The notes beneath the pieces were generated by a model. The model was not told where the DNA came from and did no database searches. It saw only the letters and a program-made list of their open reading frames with translations. A program made the translations under genes and the position numbers. Of a DNA stretch of 64,000 bases, positions 5,666 to 63,312 are shown in pieces (the first letter of the stretch is position 1; each line of letters starts with the position of its first letter). The DNA comes from an uncultured bacterium (GTDB lineage: Bacteria > Desulfobacterota > BSN033 > UBA1163): the NCBI GenBank assembly GCA_938002255.1, contig CALLAL010000010.1, positions 2,117 through 66,116 of the forward strand, given 5' to 3'.

Positions 5666-6615
5666 ATCTCGATAAATTTAGTTTCGAAGCCGATTTCTTT
5701 GGCGTATTCGATCGTACGTTGAAGAGGATAGGCGATCGTATTCAGCCCGGAATCGATGGCACCTTTTTCCATCCCTGCTTTTGAGGGATGAGCCGGCCGG
5801 ATGCAACCCATCCGGATGGGAGTTATCGGGTTAAGGATCCGTGCGATGGCTGAGATTTTAGAAGTTTCATCCGGCGTTGGCGTTCTGAAGGAATTTCTTC
5901 CAACCAAAGGTTTAAGAACCACCAGTACGATTGTTTCCACACCGACCCGGGTGACGATTTCGAGGGCTTTCCACTCTCCCCGGATTTCTCCAAAGTGATG
6001 GCCGATGATGATGTGGGGAGCAAGCCTGTGGCCCATCTCTTTCAGCATCCAGAGCGTCTCCTCATAATCCTTTACTTTTTTGTCTAAGTGATAAACCTCT
6101 CGAATGGTATCCTCATCGCCGATAACATCGATCAGGATTTGATCCACTCCTGCCTCTTTTAGTCCTTTGGCCACTTCCCGTTGGATCAAACCGGTATGGA
6201 CGATCATTTTAAAAGGGGGGTTCTTCTTTTTGATCTCTTTGATTGATGGGATAAACTGCTCCAACGGCACTTCGCCCTCCCGGTTTGCTCCCCCGCTGAT
6301 CAGGATTCCAAGGGCGCCCCTTGATCGGAGGTGCTCAATCGTATGGAAAAAGGTCTCAGGATCATTTGCTGGTATCATTGAATTGAGAAGTTTTCCTTTA
6401 CAGTGTTCACAATGGAGGGCGCAGCGGGTTCCTGTGATGCTGACGGCAGCAAAACGGTCTTTTTGGAAGCAATGGGTGGTGTCCCGATAGACGACCGTAC
6501 CGGGGATGGAGAAGGCGAGTTCGTTGCCGAAGTGAAGTTTGCGGAGGCGGAAGGCTTCCGTTTGGAGTTCGGTTAAAGGGAGTTGTATGAACTGATGAAT
6601 GGTTGACTCCATCAA
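5647..6615 (-). CDS. Radical SAM protein, LipS1/LipS2-type lipoyl synthase candidate
   Basis: 322 aa with Cx3Cx2C (CALHCEHC). Last gene of the sLpl-LipT-LipS-LipS cluster. Confidence 0.6.
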   Translation of the reverse strand: MMESTIHQFIQLPLTELQTEAFRLRKLHFGNELAFSIPGTVVYRDTTHCFQKDRFAAVSITGTRCALHCEHCKGKLLNSMIPANDPETFFHTIEHLRSRGALGILISGGANREGEVPLEQFIPSIKEIKKKNPPFKMIVHTGLIQREVAKGLKEAGVDQILIDVIGDEDTIREVYHLDKKVKDYEETLWMLKEMGHRLAPHIIIGHHFGEIRGEWKALEIVTRVGVETIVLVVLKPLVGRNSFRTPTPDETSKISAIARILNPITPIRMGCIRPAHPSKAGMEKGAIDSGLNTIAYPLQRTIEYAKEIGFETKFIEMCCSLI

Positions 6616-6672: not shown

Positions 6673-7692
6673 TTACAGCAATTGCCTCCTGATTTCTTCG
6701 ATATCCTCTTTCTCCGGCATAAATGGAAAGTTCCGTATGGGGCCAGAAGGCCTTTCATTGCCGTAAGGACGGTTGCAAGCGACTTTCCCGTTCCTTCCCG
6801 GGCATCCGGAAGTCATAAAAGGCTCACCCATTCGGATCAGAGTTTCGACATCCATACCGAAATCGACCAATTTCCCCCTCTCATCAAATCTCATCTGATC
6901 GATGGAGCTGAGCCCCTCATTAATGATCCAGCGTGCGAGTTGAATTCTCCGGTACTGGTCAAGGGGAGGGGAGGGATGGTCTTGCATGGGACTTCCCTTT
7001 TCAGGAAAGAAGGAGAAAAGATGGGTATAGGCGCCCATGTCCTGGCCTCTTTGGATGGCTTGAACCATCTCTTTCTCTGTCTCACCGAGACCCACGATGA
7101 GATGGATTCCGACATAGAATTTCCCGAACGCTTCCACCCCCATCCGGACCACCTCCCAGTAATGATTCCAGCGATGAGGACCGTTAACGCCTCTTCCTCT
7201 CAGGCGATCGAAAAGCTCGGGTGTTGCGGCATCAATAGCAATGCCAATTCGATCCGCTCCCGACTCTTTCATCCTCCGGAGGGGTTCGATGCCATGAATG
7301 AGTGTCGGTGTGATGAGAATGCTGATGAGAAGATCGGTCCTCTCTTTAAATTGTTTGGTCACATCAATCGTATCCTCGAGGGCTCTGGGATGAGTGATCA
7401 TGGAGATGCAGACCCGATGAATCTGATCTTTACCTTTCGCCCTCTCAATAATCTCATCGAGGGGATAGAGAGGCCAGTCCACACGGATGAAGGTCTTTCC
7501 CTTAGGCCCTTCCTGCCTTGATCTTGAGAGACCACAGAATTGACATCTTCCAAGGCAACCTTCTTCATAGTGAAGAAGAAGGTTGAGCCCTGTCAGCTTA
7601 GCGTTTCGATGAAAAGACCCCTGCTTGAAACCGAGGGTCAATGAAGCTGCCAGACTGGTCTGGATGTATTCAGGACTTGTTTGATGGGTCAT
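6673..7692 (-). CDS. Radical SAM protein, LipS1/LipS2-type lipoyl synthase candidate
   Basis: 339 aa with Cx3Cx2C (CLGRCQFC). 4-nt overlap with the upstream FAD protein gene. Confidence 0.6.
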   Translation of the reverse strand: MTHQTSPEYIQTSLAASLTLGFKQGSFHRNAKLTGLNLLLHYEEGCLGRCQFCGLSRSRQEGPKGKTFIRVDWPLYPLDEIIERAKGKDQIHRVCISMITHPRALEDTIDVTKQFKERTDLLISILITPTLIHGIEPLRRMKESGADRIGIAIDAATPELFDRLRGRGVNGPHRWNHYWEVVRMGVEAFGKFYVGIHLIVGLGETEKEMVQAIQRGQDMGAYTHLFSFFPEKGSPMQDHPSPPLDQYRRIQLARWIINEGLSSIDQMRFDERGKLVDFGMDVETLIRMGEPFMTSGCPGRNGKVACNRPYGNERPSGPIRNFPFMPEKEDIEEIRRQLL

Positions 7693-31336: not shown

Positions 31337-32143
31337 TCAAGACCTTATCTTCATGCCATCACACAACTGCTGAGTGGTTAATGAATAAAGGGCGTCGAAA
31401 AAGGCTGGCCGAAATGTGCCTGGCCCTTTGGCTAAACGCCCTGCCTGTTCACCCGCGAGGCCAAAGAAGGCCACAGCGCTTATGGTTGCCACCACAGGAT
31501 CCTCTTCCACGGCATGGAAGGCACCGATCACTGCTGTTAGCATACACCCCATCCCTGTCACTTGACCCATCATAGGATGGCCATTTTCCACCACCGTTTT
31601 TTTCTCTGAAGAGATAATCAGGTCCTCGGGGCCACTGGCGACCACGACCGCCCCTGTTTTTTGAGAGAGATCTCTACACGCTTGTTCCAGATCATTTGGC
31701 GCTGAAACGCAATCCACCCCAGCCAAGAAACTCTTCTGGCCAGCGAGAGCTCCAATCTCCGAGCGATTTCCTCTGATGACAGCGATCTTGAGGTTGGATA
31801 AAATTTTCTTTAACGATTCGGTCCGAAATGGAGAGGCTCCTGCGCCTACGGGGTCAAGGATTACAGGATGTCCCTCTCTGTTCGCTCGTCGACCGGCTAA
31901 GAGTATGACTTCAAAACGGGATGGAGTAGGAGTTCCAAAGTTGAGAACGAGGGCATGAGTCTTTGACGTTATGTCCTCTATCTCTTCTTGTGCAATCGCC
32001 AGGATGGGACGAGCCCCAATCGCATATAGGGAATTGGCAACATCATTAGCCGTGACCCAATTGGTAATGGCGTGAACGACAGGCTTCTTATCCCGGACTT
32101 TCTGAAGGGTGTGTGACAGGTGTTCGTTTCCAAGAACCATCAT
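31337..32143 (-). CDS. thiM: Hydroxyethylthiazole kinase
   Basis: ThiM family similarity. Start set at ATG 32143 (GGGAG SD), because the track's start at 32188 lies inside the riboswitch terminator. Confidence 0.85.
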   Translation of the reverse strand: MMVLGNEHLSHTLQKVRDKKPVVHAITNWVTANDVANSLYAIGARPILAIAQEEIEDITSKTHALVLNFGTPTPSRFEVILLAGRRANREGHPVILDPVGAGASPFRTESLKKILSNLKIAVIRGNRSEIGALAGQKSFLAGVDCVSAPNDLEQACRDLSQKTGAVVVASGPEDLIISSEKKTVVENGHPMMGQVTGMGCMLTAVIGAFHAVEEDPVVATISAVAFFGLAGEQAGRLAKGPGTFRPAFFDALYSLTTQQLCDGMKIRS

Positions 32144-32161
32144 CGTTTCTCCCTTCGAAAC

Positions 32162-32186
32162 AAAAAAACCGACCCGAAGGGTCGGC
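32162..32186 (-). terminator. Riboswitch expression-platform terminator
   Basis: Minus strand GCCGACCC-UUCG-GGGUCGG followed by UUUUUUU, between the aptamer and the thiM SD. Confidence 0.8.
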
Positions 32187-32204
32187 ATTCGATGGTCATG
32201 TTTC

Positions 32205-32301
32205 TGTCGATCCCTCCGCTGGTATTATCCAGGTCAGGTTCAGCGGGTCGGTGACTGTCCGGTCACCCTCTCAGCCAGGCACATCCCAACTCCCCGCGAC
32301 A
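32205..32301 (-). promoter_or_regulatory. TPP (THI-box) riboswitch aptamer
   Basis: Minus strand UGUCGCGGGGAGUUGGGAUGUGCCUGGCUGAGAGGGUGACCGGACAGUCACCGACCCGCUGAACCUGACCUGGAUAAUACCAGCGGAGGGAUCGACA. Contains CUGAGA and ACCUGA...GGAUAAUACCAGCG, with P1 UGUCG/CGACA. Confidence 0.9.
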
Positions 32302-32439
32302 TTCTTTAGTTTTATTATAAATTTTTTTTACATGAAGTCAAGGAGACTCGGATCGCGTTGAATCTCCTTCACCTTAAAAATTGATTTGAAATATTGGATT
32401 CTTTTATAAGATAATGGAGCCGAAAGGAATAAGGGAAAG

Positions 32440-43328: not shown

Positions 43329-43943
43329 TCAGGTGATTAAATAGAAGAGAGGAAAGAGAAAGACCCAGATGATGTCCACCAAGTGCCAATAAAGGCCACT
43401 ATTTTCTAATGGGAGATAACGTTCGTGATGAACCTTTCCTTTTCGAATGAAATAAACCATTGCGGTAAGAAGACCGATCCCCACAAGCACATGAAGGGCA
43501 TGGAGACCGGTCATCGAATAATAGAGGCCATAAAATAGAACCTCTCCCCGTTCCCTTTCAAGAAGGCGGGTTGCGTTCGGGTAAACCCCATGCTCGAATT
43601 TTGAAGCCCATTCCCAATATTTGTTAAAAAGGAAAAGGAGACCCAACAAGATCGTGGAGAGGAGAAAGCATAGGGACCGAAGAGATTGTTTCTGTTTGAG
43701 GGCGTAGAGTGACAGAGCCATGGTGAGACTGCTGGTCAACAGGATCACGGTGTTTAACGCACCAATAGGTCGGTTCAGGGATTCTGCGGCCAGATGAAAG
43801 CTTTGAGAGTAGTTGAACCGGTAGATGGCATAGAGGAGGAATAGACCTCCGAAGAGAAGAATCTCCGAGAGGAGGAAGAGCCACATGCCCAGGGTGGAAC
43901 CAAGGTCGTCTCTATGAGTCTCCATCGATCGATCGTTTATCAT
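43329..43943 (-). CDS. coxC: Cytochrome c oxidase subunit III
   Basis: 204 aa with family pattern ...TGLHALHVLVG...WHLVD. Confidence 0.85.
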   Translation of the reverse strand: MINDRSMETHRDDLGSTLGMWLFLLSEILLFGGLFLLYAIYRFNYSQSFHLAAESLNRPIGALNTVILLTSSLTMALSLYALKQKQSLRSLCFLLSTILLGLLFLFNKYWEWASKFEHGVYPNATRLLERERGEVLFYGLYYSMTGLHALHVLVGIGLLTAMVYFIRKGKVHHERYLPLENSGLYWHLVDIIWVFLFPLFYLIT

Positions 43944-45523
43944 CGATATTCATAAGGTCCCTTACTCACCAAGGGGATTTCATCAAAGTTCTCTCTTGGC
44001 GGAGGCGAAGGGATTTGCCATTCGAGTGTAGCTCCACCCCAAGGGTTTGACTCTGCTTTCTCTCCTTTGAAGAGACAATGAACGAGGTTCCCAAACATCA
44101 GGATTAAGCCTCCGATCAAAATCCAAGATCCGATGGTGGAAAGGAACTGAAGCGAGTGGAATTGGGGGAGGTAATCGAAATACCTTCTCGGCATACCCTG
44201 CCAGCCCAGAAGGAGCATGGGAAAGTAGAGCGTATTAAACCCGACAAAAAGCAGCCCCCAGGCGATATATGGTATTTTTCGATGATACATCCTGCCAAAC
44301 ATCTTCGGAAACCAGTAGTGAAGGGCGCCGAAGATGGCGAATCCGGTTCCACCGAAAATGACATAGTGAAAGTGTCCCACTACCCAGTAGGTATCATGGA
44401 GGTGGACATCTGTTGCCAGAGCTCCCTGAAAGAGTCCGGTGAGCCCTCCGATGGCGAAGAGAAAGATGAATGTCAAGGCAAAGAGAAGGGGAGGGGCAAC
44501 TTCAATGGATCCTTTGTAAAGGGTTGAAACCCAATTAAAGACTTTGACTCCACTTGGAACAGCCACTAAAAAGGTTAGAAGCGAAAAGACCACAGAGGCA
44601 ACATCGCTCTGTCCGCTGACGAACATATGGTGCCCCCAGACAAAGGAGCCCACTATAGCAATGGCGAGACTTGAAAAGGCGATCGCTTTGTATCCGAATA
44701 TCGTTCGTCGGGCAAAGACAGGGAGAATCTCAGAAATGATTCCCATAGCGGGTAGGATCATAATATAGACAGCCGGGTGGGAATAGATCCAGAAGAGATG
44801 TTGGTAAAGGAGCGGATCACCTCCTTTGGCAGGGTCAAAGATCCCGACTCCTACTAATCGTTCCATGAGGGTTAAGAGAAGGGTAATCCCAACCACAGGG
44901 GTTACTAAGATCTGGATCCACGCTGTGGCATAAATCCCCCAGACGAAGAGAGGGAGACGAAACCAGGTCATTCCAGGGGCGCGAAGTTGGTGAGTCGTTG
45001 TCACCATGTTGATTCCGGTGAGAATGGATGAAAACCCGAGGACGAAAACGCCCAGGACTGCGAGAGGAACATTCACGGGGGTTCTAAGGCTATAGGGCAC
45101 ATAAAAGGTCCAGCCCGTATCGATGGGGCCACCTCCGGTGAATAGAGAAAGGATGGCTAATGCTGCTCCTCCCATGTAAATCCACCAGGAAAGGAGATTG
45201 AGTTTCGGAAACGCGACATCTCGGGCGCCGATCTGAATCGGGAGGAAAAAGTTACCAAAAATGGCTGGTATGCCGGGAATAACGAAGAGAAAGATCATGA
45301 TGACCCCATGGAGGGTAAAGAGGGCGTTGTAGGTCTGGGGTCGCATGATTGTAGGGCCTGGAGCGATCAATTCAAGGCGTATCAGAAATCCGAGGAGGAC
45401 ACCGATGGCATAGAAGGAGAGAATCGACAGGAGATAGAGGAGACCGATTCGTTTATGGTCCGTGGAAAAGATCCAGGCCCAAAATCCTCTAAATCTCCCA
45501 TTCTCTTCATAAAAACTGGGCAT
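43940..45523 (-). CDS. coxA: Cytochrome c oxidase subunit I, A2-type
   Basis: 527 aa. The helix VI sequence FWIYSHPAVYIMILP carries the Tyr-Ser motif in place of the A1-type GHPEVY glutamate. Confidence 0.9.
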   Translation of the reverse strand: MPSFYEENGRFRGFWAWIFSTDHKRIGLLYLLSILSFYAIGVLLGFLIRLELIAPGPTIMRPQTYNALFTLHGVIMIFLFVIPGIPAIFGNFFLPIQIGARDVAFPKLNLLSWWIYMGGAALAILSLFTGGGPIDTGWTFYVPYSLRTPVNVPLAVLGVFVLGFSSILTGINMVTTTHQLRAPGMTWFRLPLFVWGIYATAWIQILVTPVVGITLLLTLMERLVGVGIFDPAKGGDPLLYQHLFWIYSHPAVYIMILPAMGIISEILPVFARRTIFGYKAIAFSSLAIAIVGSFVWGHHMFVSGQSDVASVVFSLLTFLVAVPSGVKVFNWVSTLYKGSIEVAPPLLFALTFIFLFAIGGLTGLFQGALATDVHLHDTYWVVGHFHYVIFGGTGFAIFGALHYWFPKMFGRMYHRKIPYIAWGLLFVGFNTLYFPMLLLGWQGMPRRYFDYLPQFHSLQFLSTIGSWILIGGLILMFGNLVHCLFKGEKAESNPWGGATLEWQIPSPPPRENFDEIPLVSKGPYEYR

Positions 45524-47025: not shown

Positions 47026-47249
47026 GTAACCCGTCAGTGATGGGGTGTGTTCGGTTTAAAAGGGTTGGAACGTTCCCCCTCCAAAACCTTGAATAGCGGT
47101 TATAAAAGGTTACCCTCATCGGGGCCCTCAGGCCCTTTGCATCGGATTTTTTTAAATCAGATTGGGTCGTTTTAACGAACAGAGGTTTCGCTTCAAGGTT
47201 TTTCCGAAGCAACCTCCCAACCTTTTTTTTTCTTTAACTGATGGGTTAC
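47026..47249 (+). mobile_element. MITE-like non-autonomous element, copy 1 (224 bp)
   Basis: Alignable with 63033-63247 along its whole length apart from scattered substitutions and one 12-13 nt indel. TIRs are GTAACCCGTCAGTGA and TAACTGATGGGTTAC. Flanking repeats are CTGCGAA and CTACGAA. Confidence 0.75.
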
Positions 47250-56412: not shown

Positions 56413-56440
56413 CGCTAAGCGCTTAGCGCTATGCGCATAG
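56413..56440. promoter_or_regulatory. Two abutting perfect palindromes upstream of the 2-oxoacid dehydrogenase operon
   Basis: CGCTAAGCGCTTAGCG (56413-56428) is followed immediately by CTATGCGCATAG (56429-56440). Confidence 0.35.
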
Positions 56441-56454
56441 CTATGGAGAAATCT

Positions 56455-57531
56455 ATGGGTATGTTCGAGGATGATCACCCTCTAAAGGGAGAGATGTTTC
56501 AAATTCTTAAACCGGATGGGACGCTTCAATCGGGAATGAAACCACCGTTGAGCGACCAGGAGACGTTCCACCTCTACCAGAAGATGGTTTTCATCCGCCT
56601 GGCCGATCAGAGGGCGTTGATGCTTCAACGACAGGGGCGGATGGGAACCTATGCACCTATCTGGGGTCAAGAAGCCTGTCAGGTCGGGAGTGCTGTCCTT
56701 CTTCAAAGAGAAGATTGGATCTTTCCCGCCTTCAGAGAACTTGGAGCCACTCTGATGATGGGGATTCCCCTCAAGACGATCTATCTCTACTGGATGGGTT
56801 ATGAGGAAGGAAGTCGGGCCCCACAAGGGATTAATGTGTTACCGGTTTCCATACCTGTTGGAACCCATCCTCTTCACGCGGTGGGCACAGCATGGGCGGC
56901 AAAAATCAGAGGAGATCAGATTGTGACGGTTGCCTATTTTGGTGATGGGGCGACCTCCAAAGGTGATTTTCATGAGGCCATGAACTTCGCAGGAGTCTTT
57001 AGAACGCCGACAATCTTCTTCTGCCAGAACAACCAGTTTGCCATTTCCGTTCCAAGAAAGATTCAGACCGCCTCCAAGACGATTGCTCAGAAGGCAATTG
57101 CCTATGGGATGGATGGAATTCAGGTGGACGGAAATGATCTGTTCGCTGTTTATGCTGTGACCAAAGAAGCGATTCACAAAGCCCGTTCTGGAGGAGGAGC
57201 CACACTCATCGAGGGAGTCACCTATCGGTTTGGTCCTCACACCACAGCGGATGATCCAACAAAATACCGCAAGGAAGAAGAGATCGAATTCTGGAAACCC
57301 CTTGACCCCCTGATCAGGCTTGAGCTTTACCTTCAGGGGAGAGGTCTCTGGAGCGAGGAAATTAAAAAACGAATCACAGACGAAGCCCAGAAAGAAATCG
57401 ATCAAGCCGTCAATGAGGCTGAAGCGCTTCCGATCCCTGAGGCAGAAGAGATATTTAAGTATGTCTTTTCGGAGATGACGCCTCCATTGAAAGAACAGAT
57501 GGAATATTTAAAAGGGACCCTGTCATCCTAA
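56455..57531 (+). CDS. pdhA: 2-oxoacid (pyruvate/branched-chain/acetoin type) dehydrogenase E1 alpha subunit
   Basis: ThDP motif GDGATSKGDF...NN and YRFGPHTTADDPTKYR. Start chosen at ATG 56455 (GGAG SD); the track's start at 56431 lies inside the palindrome. Confidence 0.85.
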   Translation: MGMFEDDHPLKGEMFQILKPDGTLQSGMKPPLSDQETFHLYQKMVFIRLADQRALMLQRQGRMGTYAPIWGQEACQVGSAVLLQREDWIFPAFRELGATLMMGIPLKTIYLYWMGYEEGSRAPQGINVLPVSIPVGTHPLHAVGTAWAAKIRGDQIVTVAYFGDGATSKGDFHEAMNFAGVFRTPTIFFCQNNQFAISVPRKIQTASKTIAQKAIAYGMDGIQVDGNDLFAVYAVTKEAIHKARSGGGATLIEGVTYRFGPHTTADDPTKYRKEEEIEFWKPLDPLIRLELYLQGRGLWSEEIKKRITDEAQKEIDQAVNEAEALPIPEAEEIFKYVFSEMTPPLKEQMEYLKGTLSS

Positions 57532-57550
57532 AATTTATACGGGAGCCTAT

Positions 57551-58528
57551 ATGCCCAAACTCAACATGGTTGAAGCGATTAATCTTGCCCTTCGGGAAGA
57601 GATGGAGAAAGATGATCGTATTATTATTTTAGGTGAAGATGTGGGGCGAGAAGGCGGGGTCTTCCGTGTAACCGATGGGCTTCAGGCGAAGTTCGGTGAG
57701 CAACGGGTGGTCGATACCCCTCTTGCAGAAACAGGAATCGTCGGGACAGCTATGGGGATGGCTCTCTATGGACTGAGGCCAGTGGCAGAGATTCAATTTG
57801 ATGGCTTTCTCTACCCCTGTCTTGATCAGATTACCAATCACATCGGAAGGATTCGGAATCGGTCAAGAGGCCGTTTTACCTGTCCTCTGGTCATCCGGGT
57901 TCCCTATGGAGGTGGCATTCATGCTCCTGAGCATCATTCGGAAAGCCCGGAGGCAATCCTGGCCCACACACCGGGAATTAAAGTGGTGATTCCCTCCACT
58001 CCTTTTGAAGCAAAAGGATTACTCGTCTCTTCCATCCGTGATCCTGATCCTGTGATCTTTCTTGAACCCAAACGGATCTATCGGGCGATTCGAGAAGATG
58101 TCCCGGAAGGAGATTATACCATCCCTCTGGGAAAAGCCCGACTGGTTCAAGAAGGTAAGGATGTAACAGCCATTGCTTGGGGAGCGATGGTGAGAGAGGT
58201 TTTAAATGCGGCGGAGGAGTTAAAAAGGGATAAGATTGATCTGGAGGTTATAGATCTCAGGACCATCTCCCCTATGGATGTGGATGCTATCACCACATCA
58301 GTCAAAAAAACTGGAAAGGCGGTCATCGTCCATGAGGCCCCCAGGACCTGTGGTTTAGGGGCAGAGATTATTGCCTTGATCAATGAAAAGGCTTTTCTTT
58401 CCCTTCAAGCTCCCATCGAACGAGTGACCGGGTTTGATGTCCCTGTTCCTTTATTGAAGTCTGAACATTACTATCTTCCCAATCCTAAAAGAATAGTGGT
58501 GGCTGTGAAGAAGGTGATGAGTTTCTGA
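57551..58528 (+). CDS. pdhB: 2-oxoacid dehydrogenase E1 beta subunit
   Basis: 325 aa of the transketolase-like pyrimidine-binding family (VVDTPLAETGIVG). Confidence 0.9.
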   Translation: MPKLNMVEAINLALREEMEKDDRIIILGEDVGREGGVFRVTDGLQAKFGEQRVVDTPLAETGIVGTAMGMALYGLRPVAEIQFDGFLYPCLDQITNHIGRIRNRSRGRFTCPLVIRVPYGGGIHAPEHHSESPEAILAHTPGIKVVIPSTPFEAKGLLVSSIRDPDPVIFLEPKRIYRAIREDVPEGDYTIPLGKARLVQEGKDVTAIAWGAMVREVLNAAEELKRDKIDLEVIDLRTISPMDVDAITTSVKKTGKAVIVHEAPRTCGLGAEIIALINEKAFLSLQAPIERVTGFDVPVPLLKSEHYYLPNPKRIVVAVKKVMSF

Positions 58529-58571
58529 CCAGTTGAATGTATATCTTTGGCATTGTTTTTTAGGAGGTTTT

Positions 58572-59828
58572 ATGGCTTTTGAATTCAGGTTTCCAGACAT
58601 CGGTGAGGGTTTGACCGAAGGCGAGATTGTGCGTTGGCTGGTGCAGGAAGGGGATGAAGTGAGAGAGGGTCAGCCCCTAGTGGAAGTCGAAACCGACAAA
58701 GCTCTTGCGGAAATCCCTTGTCCTAAAACAGGGGTTATCCTGAAAATTTTGGCAAAAGAAAAAGAAATCGTAAAAGTCGGACAGGTCATTGTCATTATCG
58801 GGGAACAGGGAGAATTTTTTGCCGCACCTCCTGAGAAACCTAAATCCGTTGGAGTCGTAGGAGAGCTGGAAGAAGCTCCTGAAGAAATTCCTGCAGCTGA
58901 CATGAAGACTGAACCTGTTAAACCTGCCTTTGTCAGCGAACATGTTCTAGCAACCCCTGCAGTTCGAGGATTGGCGAAGGAATTGGGAGTCGATATCCAC
59001 CAGATCAGAGGATCCGGCCCGGAGGGGAGGGTCCTTGAAAAAGATGTTCGAGAGTTTGCCAACAATCAAAAAAAACCTCCAGAACCAGAGAAGAAAATCA
59101 CCAAAGTGAAGAAGTATGATCTTTATGGATACGTCGATCGAATTCCATTAAGAGGCGTGAGACGATCCATTGCCAAGGCAATGGTGAAATCCAAATACAC
59201 AGCTCCTCATGTCACAACCATCGATGAGGCAGATGTCACAGCGTTGTGGAAGATCAGAGAAAAGGAAAAAAAGGTAGCTGAAAAGAAAGGGATAAAATTG
59301 ACGATCCTTCCCTTTATTATCAAGGCGGTCATCGCTGGCTTGATAGAGCATCCCTATCTCAATGCCACCTTAGACGATGAAAATGAAGAGATCATTTTAA
59401 AAAAATATTTCAATATCGGAGTGGCAACAGATACACCTGAGGGACTCATGGTTCCCGTGGTGAAGAACGCAAAAGATAAATCCATCCTTCAGATTGCAGA
59501 GGAATTGACGCAATTGGTTGAAAAAGCGAGAAACCGAACGATTGATCTCGCTGACCTTAAAGGTGGGACCTTTACCCTCACCAATTTCGGTGCTTTGGGG
59601 GGGATCTATGGTACCCCCATCATCAACCATCCTGAAGTTGCCATTCTTGGGGTAGGAAAAATAAAAGAGATGCCGGTGGTCAGAAATGGGAGGATGGTCG
59701 TTCGAAAGATTCTCCCCCTGTCCCTTTCTTTTGATCACCGGGTGGTTGATGGAGCAGAAGGAGCGCGATTTTTGAACACCGTCATTGCCCGACTCGAAGA
59801 TCCGGACCTGATCCTTCTGGAGACCTGA
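58572..59828 (+). CDS. Dihydrolipoamide acyltransferase E2 (one lipoyl domain)
   Basis: Start at ATG 58572 (AGGAGG SD). Lipoyl-lysine motif VETDKA, an E3-binding domain and the catalytic motif SFDHRVVDGA. Confidence 0.9.
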   Translation: MAFEFRFPDIGEGLTEGEIVRWLVQEGDEVREGQPLVEVETDKALAEIPCPKTGVILKILAKEKEIVKVGQVIVIIGEQGEFFAAPPEKPKSVGVVGELEEAPEEIPAADMKTEPVKPAFVSEHVLATPAVRGLAKELGVDIHQIRGSGPEGRVLEKDVREFANNQKKPPEPEKKITKVKKYDLYGYVDRIPLRGVRRSIAKAMVKSKYTAPHVTTIDEADVTALWKIREKEKKVAEKKGIKLTILPFIIKAVIAGLIEHPYLNATLDDENEEIILKKYFNIGVATDTPEGLMVPVVKNAKDKSILQIAEELTQLVEKARNRTIDLADLKGGTFTLTNFGALGGIYGTPIINHPEVAILGVGKIKEMPVVRNGRMVVRKILPLSLSFDHRVVDGAEGARFLNTVIARLEDPDLILLET

Positions 59829-61250: not shown

Positions 61251-61517
61251 ATGGCCAAAAGGAATCCGAAGCCCGCTGGGGGGAGGGTAGAGAAGGAAGA
61301 AAGGCCTTGCTGTAAGGTTGAGTCCATCGTCAGCATAGACGAACGGGGGCAAATGGTCCTCCCGAAAGAGCTGCGAGAGCGGGCCAGAATTAAACCTGGA
61401 GATAAACTGGCCCTGATCAGCTGGGATAAAGGGGGAGAAATCTGCTGTTTCTATTTAATCAAGGCGGAGTCTCTCGGAGAACGGGTGAGAGATTTCCTTG
61501 GGCCCATGACGGTATGA
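61251..61517 (+). CDS. Small SpoVT/AbrB-domain DNA-binding protein with two vicinal Cys pairs (hgcAB-associated)
   Basis: 88 aa. SIDERGQMVLPKELRERARIKPGDKL is a swapped-hairpin AbrB/MazE motif. CC at residues 20-21 and 65-66. GGAGGAG SD. Confidence 0.7.
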   Translation: MAKRNPKPAGGRVEKEERPCCKVESIVSIDERGQMVLPKELRERARIKPGDKLALISWDKGGEICCFYLIKAESLGERVRDFLGPMTV

Positions 61518-61619
61518 GCAAGGGAGGGAACGATGGATCTATGTTCATGCACTCCTTTCGTATCTGAAAAAGATGGAACTTATTCTTCCAACTGCTGAGT
61601 TCCATCTCCAAAAGCTCAG

Positions 61620-62681
61620 TTGAGCTTTCCTGACTTAAAACAGCCGTTTGTCATCGGTTCGATCCAAACGCCTGTAGGGATTGTTCCTCAGGTTTCCTCC
61701 TTTTTAACGCGGAAAGACCGTGTGGGGAGTTTCAAAGCTCGTTTGGGGATTAACCGTATGCATTATCTGGTTGAACCAGGGCTTTATGCCCTTGGTACTC
61801 CAAACGAAAAGTCTCCGGTTATGGTGACGGCTAATTATAAAATGAGTTTTGACCATCTTCGTCAAGCCCTGACGGGACATAATGTTTGGATTCTGGTTCT
61901 TGATACAAAAGGAATCAATGTCTGGTGCTCAGCAGGCAAGGGAACGTTTGGTACCGAAGAACTGACCAGGCGTATCCAATCAAGTGGTCTGGCTATGGTT
62001 GTTACACACCGTGAAATCATTCTCCCCCAATTGTCTGCCCCTGGTGTGGCGGCTCACGAAGTCAAAAAAATATCGGGGTTCAAAGTGATTTATGGACCGA
62101 TTCGGGCAAAAGACCTTCCGATCTTTCTTGATGCAGGATTCAAAGCAACCTCAGAGATGAGGGTGAAGACGTTTCCCCTCAGGGAAAGGATCGTCCTGAT
62201 TCCCATAGAACTTTGGCCTGCCCTTAAAGGAGGATTCATTTTTTCCTTCATCCTCTTTCTTATCGCTTTTATGTGGAGATGGGGGGAGGGCTGGACCCTC
62301 GCTTTGAATCACGCTCTCACGCCTGTTATGGCGATCTTGATTGCCATTTTTTCAGGAGCCGTTTTAACCCCTATCTTACTTCCCTGGCTGCCAGGTCGAG
62401 CTTTTTCAAGTAAAGGTGCTTGGGTTGGAATCTTTTCCTCTGTCCTCTTCCATTTTTTTCGATTAGCGTTGAGGGTTAAAATAACAGGACATCTTGAATC
62501 CATTGCGTGGTTCCTTTTGATCCCTGCGGTTTCTGCCTTCTTAGCCATGAATTTTACAGGAGCTTCAACCTTTACCTCCCTTTCTGGTGTCAAAAAAGAG
62601 ATGCGATGGGCTCTCCCGTTTCAGATTGGGGCTGGTACCATCGGGGTTATTCTCTGGCTTGGGTCTCAGTTCTTTTTGTAA
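61620..62681 (+). CDS. hgcA: Mercury methylation corrinoid protein HgcA (the reading frame may really begin at ATG 61533 with an in-frame UGA at 61596)
   Basis: PGLYALGTPNEKSPVMVTANYKMSFDHLRQAL...WILVLDTKGINVWCSAGKGTFGTEEL cap-helix region (61917-61940) plus a C-terminal domain of about 5 TM. The track's start is a TTG without an SD. Confidence 0.85.
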   Translation: MSFPDLKQPFVIGSIQTPVGIVPQVSSFLTRKDRVGSFKARLGINRMHYLVEPGLYALGTPNEKSPVMVTANYKMSFDHLRQALTGHNVWILVLDTKGINVWCSAGKGTFGTEELTRRIQSSGLAMVVTHREIILPQLSAPGVAAHEVKKISGFKVIYGPIRAKDLPIFLDAGFKATSEMRVKTFPLRERIVLIPIELWPALKGGFIFSFILFLIAFMWRWGEGWTLALNHALTPVMAILIAIFSGAVLTPILLPWLPGRAFSSKGAWVGIFSSVLFHFFRLALRVKITGHLESIAWFLLIPAVSAFLAMNFTGASTFTSLSGVKKEMRWALPFQIGAGTIGVILWLGSQFFL

Positions 62682-62693
62682 GGAGTTCGATTG

Positions 62694-63026
62694 ATGAATA
62701 CCCTGATCTATCTGAAAGATGTGGTGACCTTAAAGTTAGATGAGAAAAAATGTGTGGCCTGTGGGATGTGTTTACAGGTGTGTCCTCATAGGGTTTTCGA
62801 TTTAAACAATAGCTCTGTTAAGATCGTAAACCGGGATGCCTGCATGGAGTGCGGAGCCTGTTCCAGAAACTGTCCGACAGAGGCCTTAAGCGTTCAATCT
62901 GGGGTAGGTTGTGCGGCAGCAATGATCGATGTCTTGCTTGGGAGATCAAATTCACCCTGCTGTGGCCCAAAAGATTCTGAAAACAATTTAGCCGGATGTA
63001 CGAGTAAACCAGGAGGTTGCTGTTGA
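62694..63026 (+). CDS. hgcB: Mercury methylation ferredoxin HgcB (2x[4Fe-4S])
   Basis: CVACGMCLQVCP and CMECGACSRNCP motifs, an internal PCC and a C-terminal GGCC. AGGAG SD 8 nt before ATG 62694. Confidence 0.85.
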   Translation: MNTLIYLKDVVTLKLDEKKCVACGMCLQVCPHRVFDLNNSSVKIVNRDACMECGACSRNCPTEALSVQSGVGCAAAMIDVLLGRSNSPCCGPKDSENNLAGCTSKPGGCC

Positions 63027-63032
63027 TAAAAA

Positions 63033-63247
63033 GTAACCCCTCAGTTACGGGGTGTTTTCGGTTTAATAAAAGGGTTGGAACGTTCCCCCTCCAAAACCTT
63101 CAATAGCGGTTATCAAAGGTTACCCTCATCGGGGCTCTCATGTCCTTTGAATCGAATTTTTTTGAATCAGATTTGGTCGTTTTGACGAACAGAGTTTTTC
63201 CGAAAGAACCTCCCAACCCTTTTTTATTTCTTTAACTGAGGGGTTAC
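63033..63247 (+). mobile_element. MITE-like non-autonomous element, copy 2 (215 bp)
   Basis: Perfect 15-bp TIR GTAACCCCTCAGTTA / TAACTGAGGGGTTAC. Perfect 8-bp direct repeat GATAAAAA on both flanks (63025-63032 and 63248-63255). Confidence 0.8.
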
Positions 63248-63266: not shown

Positions 63267-63312
63267 TTGACATTTTCTTTTTTTATGGTATAAAAGGTCT
63301 ACATATGTAGAC
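63267..63312 (+). promoter_or_regulatory. lexA promoter with a candidate LexA operator
   Basis: TTGACA (63267-63272), 16 nt spacer, TGgTATAAA (extended -10), then the perfect 16-bp palindrome GTCTACATATGTAGAC (63297-63312). Confidence 0.5.

Follow-up and report, generated by a model that had tools for sequence, protein, structure and literature searches.

A probable selenoprotein HgcA with a conserved, co-varying selenocysteine insertion hairpin in an uncultured bacterium of the Desulfobacterota

The subject of this study is the hgcA gene on a 64,000-nucleotide stretch of DNA from an uncultured bacterium of the Desulfobacterota (GenBank assembly GCA_938002255.1, contig CALLAL010000010.1, positions 2,117 to 66,116 of the forward strand), which was analyzed as a whole and is referred to here as the window. 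HgcA is the corrinoid protein of the HgcAB mercury-methylating complex. In the window its frame extends from 61533 to 62681 (+) and is broken by a single TGA codon (61596-61598) and by nothing else. The frame opens at ATG 61533, which is the first start codon past the upstream in-frame stop and lies 4 nt downstream of the Shine-Dalgarno (SD) motif GGGAGGG (61522-61528, +), read directly from the sequence. From this ATG, a Cys-rich extension of 21 codons (MDLCSCTPFVSEKDGTYSSNC, 61533-61595, +) leads up to the TGA, its last codon being TGC (61593-61595; Cys21), and past the TGA the frame stays open for 360 more codons to TAA 62679-62681. Mechanical open reading frame (ORF) finding divides the gene into an ORF of 21 residues and an ORF of 353 residues that begins at TTG 61620, so that the extension lies upstream of the call. 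From the TGA to the conserved HgcA core there is no ATG, GTG or TTG other than this one, which has no purine-rich SD. It spans the loop and the 3' arm of a hairpin of the selenocysteine insertion sequence (SECIS) type, AAAGCUC-AGUU-GAGCUUU (61611-61628, +), whose perfect 7-bp stem is formed by arms at 61611-61617 and 61622-61628. We consider it very probable that 61533-62681 is one hgcA gene encoding a selenoprotein of 382 residues, in which the UGA specifies selenocysteine (Sec, U) at position 22 and forms a Cys21-Sec22 dipeptide within the pentapeptide NCUVP.

The initial annotation of the window, a model's reading of the letters without database searches, had drawn attention to the SD-led ATG, to the Cys-rich opening that meets a TGA and then continues in the same frame into HgcA, to the TTG without an SD as the only start before the conserved core, and to the perfect hairpin. 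Direct reading and translation bore out all of these observations. It had also remarked that TGA is a real stop elsewhere in the window, as is indeed the case. TGA terminates hgcC (61515), hgcB (63024, followed by TAA) and the pyruvate dehydrogenase E1-beta (58526) and E2 (59826) genes, as well as the ORFs ending at 7689, 8779 and 14576. Because so many genes of the window end normally at TGA, a genome-wide reassignment of UGA was excluded. A scan of the window for a second selenoprotein gene, in the form of a frame interrupted by TGA, returned only ordinary gene ends and adjacent genes in the same frame.

The read-through product belongs to the HgcA family, as it matches the NCBIfam equivalog model NF040863 (HgcA_corrinoid) with 460.7 bits against a cutoff of 275. 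The match covers model positions 1-324 of 325 and protein residues 51-380, and since it starts at residue 51 the N-terminal extension is not scored by the model. HgcA proteins carry a cap-helix motif, N(V/I)WC(A)(A/G)GK, whose cysteine is the cobalt ligand. A script located this motif in the window protein as NVWCSAGK (residues 129-136), with Ser where Ala is usual after the presumed corrinoid cobalt ligand, Cys132 (codon 61926-61928, +). Its equivalent in strain ND132 is Cys93, for which the role of cobalt ligand is quoted in PMC11588087. By hydropathy analysis, residues 227-252, 254-289 and 321-343 are strongly hydrophobic, as fits a C-terminal transmembrane domain of several helices.

The codon was followed through the family by scanning one genome per GTDB species, which gave 80 HgcA loci of 56-74% identity, mostly from metagenome-assembled genomes (MAGs) of the Thermodesulfobacteriota. 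The usable comparison set held 80 sequences, namely the window and 79 loci, each translated in frame upstream of its match. An in-frame stop occupies the aligned codon in 49 of the 80 (the window and 48 relatives, about 60%), and it is TGA in all 49, never TAA or TAG. It lies 7-9 codons before the site that matches residue 1 of the TTG-started ORF, and a Cys codon directly precedes it in 40 of the 49. The reading frame 5' of the TGA is an open, ATG-initiated extension in 48 of the TGA loci, with a length of 11-89 codons (18-35 in most), and an SD-like motif stands before the first in-frame ATG in 34. Where there is no TGA, cysteines were counted within the 12 codons before the alignment anchor, the aligned site included. 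On this count, Cys-Cys is found in 17 of these 31 loci and Cys-x-Cys in eight; of the remaining loci, one shows a single Cys and five are free of Cys. To the question raised by the initial annotation, whether Cys or TGA aligns at this codon in orthologues, the set answers with TGA in 49 of 80 sequences and with CC or CxC at the site or beside it in 25 of the 31 others. TGA as the only stop codon, with Cys in the majority of the remaining loci, is the pattern by which a Sec/Cys pair is usually recognized.

The five loci counted as Cys-free deserve separate mention. Four of them (L044, L046, L048 and L050) represent HgcA forms devoid of Cys in the aligned stretch. The fifth, L042 (positions 5970-5985 of the locus), was placed there by the counting and retains both the TGA and the SECIS hairpin, but an insertion of two nucleotides (CC) immediately after the TGA breaks its frame. 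Before the TGA it has TCT where the near-identical L056 has TGT. L042 has either been misassembled or carries an N-terminal extension that is decaying.

These data bear directly on the simplest alternative, in which the UGA is a true stop, 61533-61598 encodes a 21-residue Cys-rich leader or upstream ORF, and HgcA is made separately from TTG 61620. This is how the ORF listing presents the region, with its 21-residue and 353-residue frames, and in 40 of the 49 TGA loci a GTG, TTG or ATG does occur at codon +7 past the UGA or close to it; in addition, a short ND132 HgcA, recognized as such from its size, seems to be active in lysates (discussed below). A mere stop, however, does not account for TGA in 49 of 49 loci to the exclusion of TAA and TAG, nor for CC or CxC in the same short stretch of other loci. 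From the UGA to the supposed TTG start, moreover, conservation of the peptide (P-P-x-x-K-A-Q) continues. In nine of the 49 TGA loci, no ATG, GTG or TTG is present between the UGA and the conserved QPFV motif, which means that HgcA cannot generally start downstream of the UGA. In the window itself, TTG 61620 lacks an SD and is sequestered in the hairpin, while the SECIS loop consensus, AG(G/U)U with G as the next base, accounts for the GUG or UUG at codon +7. On balance, we regard termination at the UGA with separate initiation at the TTG as very unlikely.

The RNA also supports the Sec reading. Nearly all TGA forms have a hairpin of consensus GGCUC-AGGU-GAGCC, in register and beginning 15 nt after the UGA, and in the window the apical loop occupies 61618-61621, with G 61619 (19 nt after the UGA) being invariant in TGA forms. 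The hairpin is missing from the Cys forms, apart from the frame-broken L042 and a shifted remnant in L020. Over the 45 nt that follow the site, the mean minimum free energy (MFE) is -13.6 kcal/mol for TGA forms versus -8.9 kcal/mol for Cys forms (Mann-Whitney p = 5e-6), and the longest stem averages 6.1 versus 4.6 bp (p = 7e-7). The L020 remnant, GAGGCU…AGCCUU, is a shifted 6-bp hairpin at about 5975-6005 of a locus from a Nitrospinota MAG whose protein is of the Cys-Cys form (…GACCPPEGEAQ…). Judged from its sequence, this locus would be consistent with a fairly recent conversion of Sec to Cys.

In the alignment of the 49 TGA sequences (A1), pairing across the five core pairs of the stem is 98-100%. 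Compensatory double changes occur at four of these pairs: UA to CG in seven sequences, CG to UA in four, and GC to AU in three at one pair and in one, the window itself, at another. The covariation score of 0.229 was reached by none of 500 shuffles (0.156 +/- 0.014), and sliding the 3' arm by 1-3 columns reduced pairing to 21-56%, compared with the 84.5% observed. Several of the compensatory changes recode the peptide, from AQVS to ARQG or VQVN; because they alter the protein while preserving the stem, selection acts on the RNA.

The window hairpin was also compared with the bacterial SECIS (bSECIS) model of bSECISearch (PMC13188914, Fig. 2), which specifies a loop of 3-9 nt, a stem of 4-16 bp, a spacing of 16-37 nt from the UGA, a G within the first two loop positions and an MFE of at most -7.5 kcal/mol. 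All of these apply to the window, which has a 4-nt loop (AGUU) with G at position 2 followed by U, a stem of 7 bp, 19 nt from UGA to loop and an MFE of -9.4 kcal/mol. The initial annotation's suggestion of a SECIS thus holds on both counts, as the element agrees with the published bSECIS model in every respect and is conserved and co-varying among TGA forms. Its broader proposal, that the UGA is decoded as Sec with the aid of this downstream element, is supported by the same hairpin and by the TGA-or-Cys pattern of the orthologues.

That the TGA might instead be a sequencing or assembly error, or a recent pseudogenizing mutation of a TGC or TGT Cys codon, was also considered. TGA is one substitution away from either codon, and one relative, L042, does have a frame-breaking insertion of two nucleotides right after its TGA. 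Set against this are 48 independent assemblies from different studies that share the same TGA codon and a hairpin without counterpart in the Cys forms. We consider an error or a recent lesion in the window to be extremely improbable.

Several observations weigh against the selenoprotein reading or limit it. Taken by itself, the hairpin of the window is moderately unusual. The UGA with the 34 nt that follow folds at -9.4 kcal/mol (z = -2.39), a value matched by 4 of 200 shuffles, but the fold of a 71-nt window is unremarkable (z = -0.96), and 1.6% of the TGA triplets in the whole window have a perfect hairpin of at least 7 bp starting 8-20 nt downstream. The significance of the element rests instead on the occurrence of TGA in 49 of 49 loci, on Cys at the aligned site elsewhere and on the covariation of the stem. 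No Rfam family fits the hairpin, as a permissive scan of 61400-61800 gave only chance matches to small nucleolar RNA and clustered regularly interspaced short palindromic repeat (CRISPR) models. To our knowledge, it has no obvious likeness to the fdhF element of E. coli.

No tRNA-Sec, selA, selB or selD was found within the 64-kb window or in 0.96 Mb of related loci. The search combined ARAGORN, which detected no tRNA in the window, with tblastn using SelA, SelB and SelD of E. coli and with NCBIfam scans of the 20 window ORFs of a size suitable for SelA, SelB or SelD, which identified housekeeping genes only. Nor were sel genes present in 10 kb of extra flank on contigs sharing the exact LexA. 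Such an absence is expected for local neighborhoods and is uninformative beyond them.

The Cys-Sec pair itself is not universal. In nine of the 49 TGA loci (L034, L051, L054, L055 and L076, with PPT-U-G/A, and L003, L015, L035 and L053) the residue before the Sec codon is Thr, Leu, Met or Arg in place of Cys. A strict vicinal Cys-Sec chelate is hence, as far as these sequences tell, not a general property of the family. Some of these relatives have a Cys four residues past the Sec (U-ATSC, U-GPAC), and the nine have hairpins with a compensatory GGUUC/GAACC stem. Their sequences suggest that a single selenolate, rather than a vicinal chelate, may be the functional group. The pentapeptide also departs from the published one, the window having NCUVP where Haft and Gwadz (bioRxiv 10.1101/2022.07.06.499078) found PCUGP. 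PCUGP was invariant in their 20 reference proteins and was not presented as a requirement of the family. Among the closest relatives of the window the motif is mostly xCUP(P/Q/S), and PCUGP occurs in none of the 49 TGA loci, the nearest being PTUGP; the difference is one at the level of lineage.

At the protein level, no evidence for Sec in any HgcA was found in the literature searched. Methylation still proceeded in E. coli lysates with a recombinant ND132 HgcA of about 37 kDa (PMC11588087), a protein that from its size would correspond to the originally annotated short form. The activity of the approximately 37-kDa protein in lysates, and the existence of relatives that are Cys-free in the aligned stretch, suggest that the N-terminal tail of HgcA is auxiliary and not essential.

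A further alternative is a selenium-dependent switch between isoforms. When selenium is sufficient, full-length HgcA with the Cys-Sec motif would be made; when it is scarce, ribosomes would stop at the UGA and re-initiate 21 nt downstream, yielding a tail-less but functional HgcA. Compatible with such a switch are a UUG or GUG that could serve as a start, located in the SECIS loop and 3' arm and shared by the window and about 80% of relatives, the seemingly active ND132 protein, if it indeed lacks the tail, and the natural Cys-free forms L044, L046, L048 and L050. Yet a start codon is missing altogether from this stretch in nine of the 49 TGA loci, no SD precedes the loop start codon, and the SECIS consensus alone accounts for that codon. 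We judge the switch to be unlikely. If it did operate, methylmercury production, or its affinity for Hg, would be tied to selenium supply.

Returning to the selenoprotein reading, we propose that translation begins at ATG 61533, directed by the strong SD, and that the hairpin at 61611-61628, acting as a bacterial SECIS, would recruit SelB-GTP-Sec-tRNA(Sec), so that Sec is inserted at UGA 61596-61598 without termination. From the sequence features described above we infer that the source organism decodes UGA in this SelB-dependent manner. The product would carry a short, flexible N-terminal tail bearing Cys21-Sec22, followed by the corrinoid-binding domain with Cys132 and then the C-terminal membrane domain. 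The Cys-Sec pair would most likely bind Hg(II) and position it for, or pass it to, the methyl-corrinoid, much like the C-terminal Cys-Cys of HgcB. This putative role of the pair in Hg(II) binding and catalysis is drawn by analogy, because of selenolate and thiol chemistry, the parallel with HgcB and the argument made by Haft and Gwadz.

The initial annotation was not aware of any described selenoprotein HgcA; in this it was mistaken, as Haft and Gwadz had already published one in 2022-2023. According to their preprint, selenoproteins make up most of the HgcA proteins, the CU motif lying in an N-terminal extension, and all 20 reference species encode the Sec machinery. The Journal of Bacteriology version of 2023 is cited in PMC11588087, a 2024 paper on HgcAB in the Proceedings of the National Academy of Sciences mentions the finding, and a 2026 review (PMC13188914) lists HgcA (NF040863, motif CU) among prokaryotic selenoproteins. 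The window gene agrees with their description in having a single in-frame UGA upstream of the formerly predicted start, with Cys-Sec in a short N-terminal extension and Cys-Cys in homologues. It agrees as well in its length of 382 residues, within the reported range of 363-400, and in its adjacent hgcB. It is a further example of the published selenoprotein HgcA and not a discovery, and the points in which it departs from their account are minor. Whereas the preprint gives no hairpin for hgcA, a conserved and co-varying SECIS is documented here.

Two other groups of proteins are useful for comparison. HgcA proteins of the Cys type (CC or CGC; among them L020, L025, L027, L031 and L061) have their thiol pair in the same position before QPFV and the same operon partner, but use TGC or TGT in place of TGA and lack the GGCUC/GAGCC hairpin, except for the shifted partial hairpin of L020. 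SaoL, SaoB and SaoC of the SAO locus and a subgroup of the MerT family, all described by Haft and Gwadz, share the vicinal Cys-Sec pair and a proposed binding of soft heavy metals, but their folds are unrelated and they sit in different genomic surroundings. Genes of the SAO locus were not noticed in the window, in which no search was aimed at them.

The genes on either side of hgcA belong to the same system. Immediately upstream, hgcC (61251-61517, +) encodes an AbrB-type protein of 88 residues with two vicinal Cys-Cys pairs. It matches NF040962, "HgcAB-associated protein HgcC", with 120.4 bits against a cutoff of 70, and also the AbrB domain model TIGR01439, and its stop is a genuine TGA (61515-61517). 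The end of hgcC (…DFLGPM…) likewise lies directly 5' of hgcA in L001, L002, L005, L008 and L009. From its sequence, HgcC could possibly be a regulator that senses Hg or redox state. Downstream, hgcB (62694-63026, +) starts 13 nt after the hgcA stop and encodes a ferredoxin with two [4Fe-4S] clusters (NF040864, HgcB_ferredoxin, 121.4 bits against a cutoff of 99). The last two residues of HgcB are Cys-Cys, after which TGA and TAA stand as tandem stops, and the protein has an additional internal Cys-Cys (SPCCGP). The vicinal Cys pairs that the initial annotation had seen in both neighboring proteins are thus present, as two Cys-Cys pairs in HgcC and as the C-terminal Cys-Cys of HgcB. According to the literature, Sec replaces the ninth Cys in about 6% of HgcB proteins; at this position (GVGC), all 71 HgcB sequences from the window and the loci have Cys and none has Sec.

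Between hgcB and lexA lies an element of roughly 215 nt (63033-63247), of which a second copy in the same orientation is found at 47026-47249, the two sharing most positions over about 215-230 nt. Both copies have a 15-nt terminal inverted repeat, GTAACCCCTCAGTTA, at their borders, with a second inverted repeat nested inside. The copy at 63033-63247 folds at -67.8 kcal/mol (z = -3.45) and has no match in Rfam. The element looks like a miniature inverted-repeat transposable element or a repeat resembling repetitive extragenic palindromes, or else like a family of structured RNA. A perfect 16-bp palindrome, GTCTACATATGTAGAC, is located at 63297-63312, 25 nt 5' of the start of lexA (ATG 63337; LexA by TIGR00498), and could be the LexA operator (SOS box) of this lineage.

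Elsewhere in the window, a thiamine pyrophosphate (TPP) riboswitch (RF00059, 69.6 bits) at 32193-32306 (-) precedes a set of minus-strand ORFs, at 31337-32188 and beyond; an Rfam scan of the whole window at gathering thresholds yielded nothing besides it. An aa3-type cytochrome c oxidase subunit I is encoded at 43943-45523 (-), with a TIGR02891 score of 669.2 bits, just below the cutoff of 670.75. A pyruvate dehydrogenase complex is encoded at 56431-59828 (+), and LipS1/LipS2 lipoyl synthases are encoded on the contig that carries hgcAB. Together, the oxidase, the dehydrogenase complex and LipS1/LipS2 hint, as far as gene content can indicate, at some metabolism related to oxygen in an Hg methylator that is presumed to be anaerobic.

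The hgcA gene is still miscalled by mechanical ORF finding, here as a protein of 353 residues starting at TTG 61620 from which the Cys-Sec tail is lost, and surveys of mercury methylators that rely on such calls miss a probable metal-binding site. To the published account, the present analysis adds the use of TGA in about 60% of the sequences compared, a co-varying SECIS that constrains the peptide AQVS, and a clade motif of xCUP rather than PCUGP. A selenolate beside the methyl-corrinoid site would link the availability of selenium to the formation of methylmercury, a link of environmental interest that has already been proposed in the literature.

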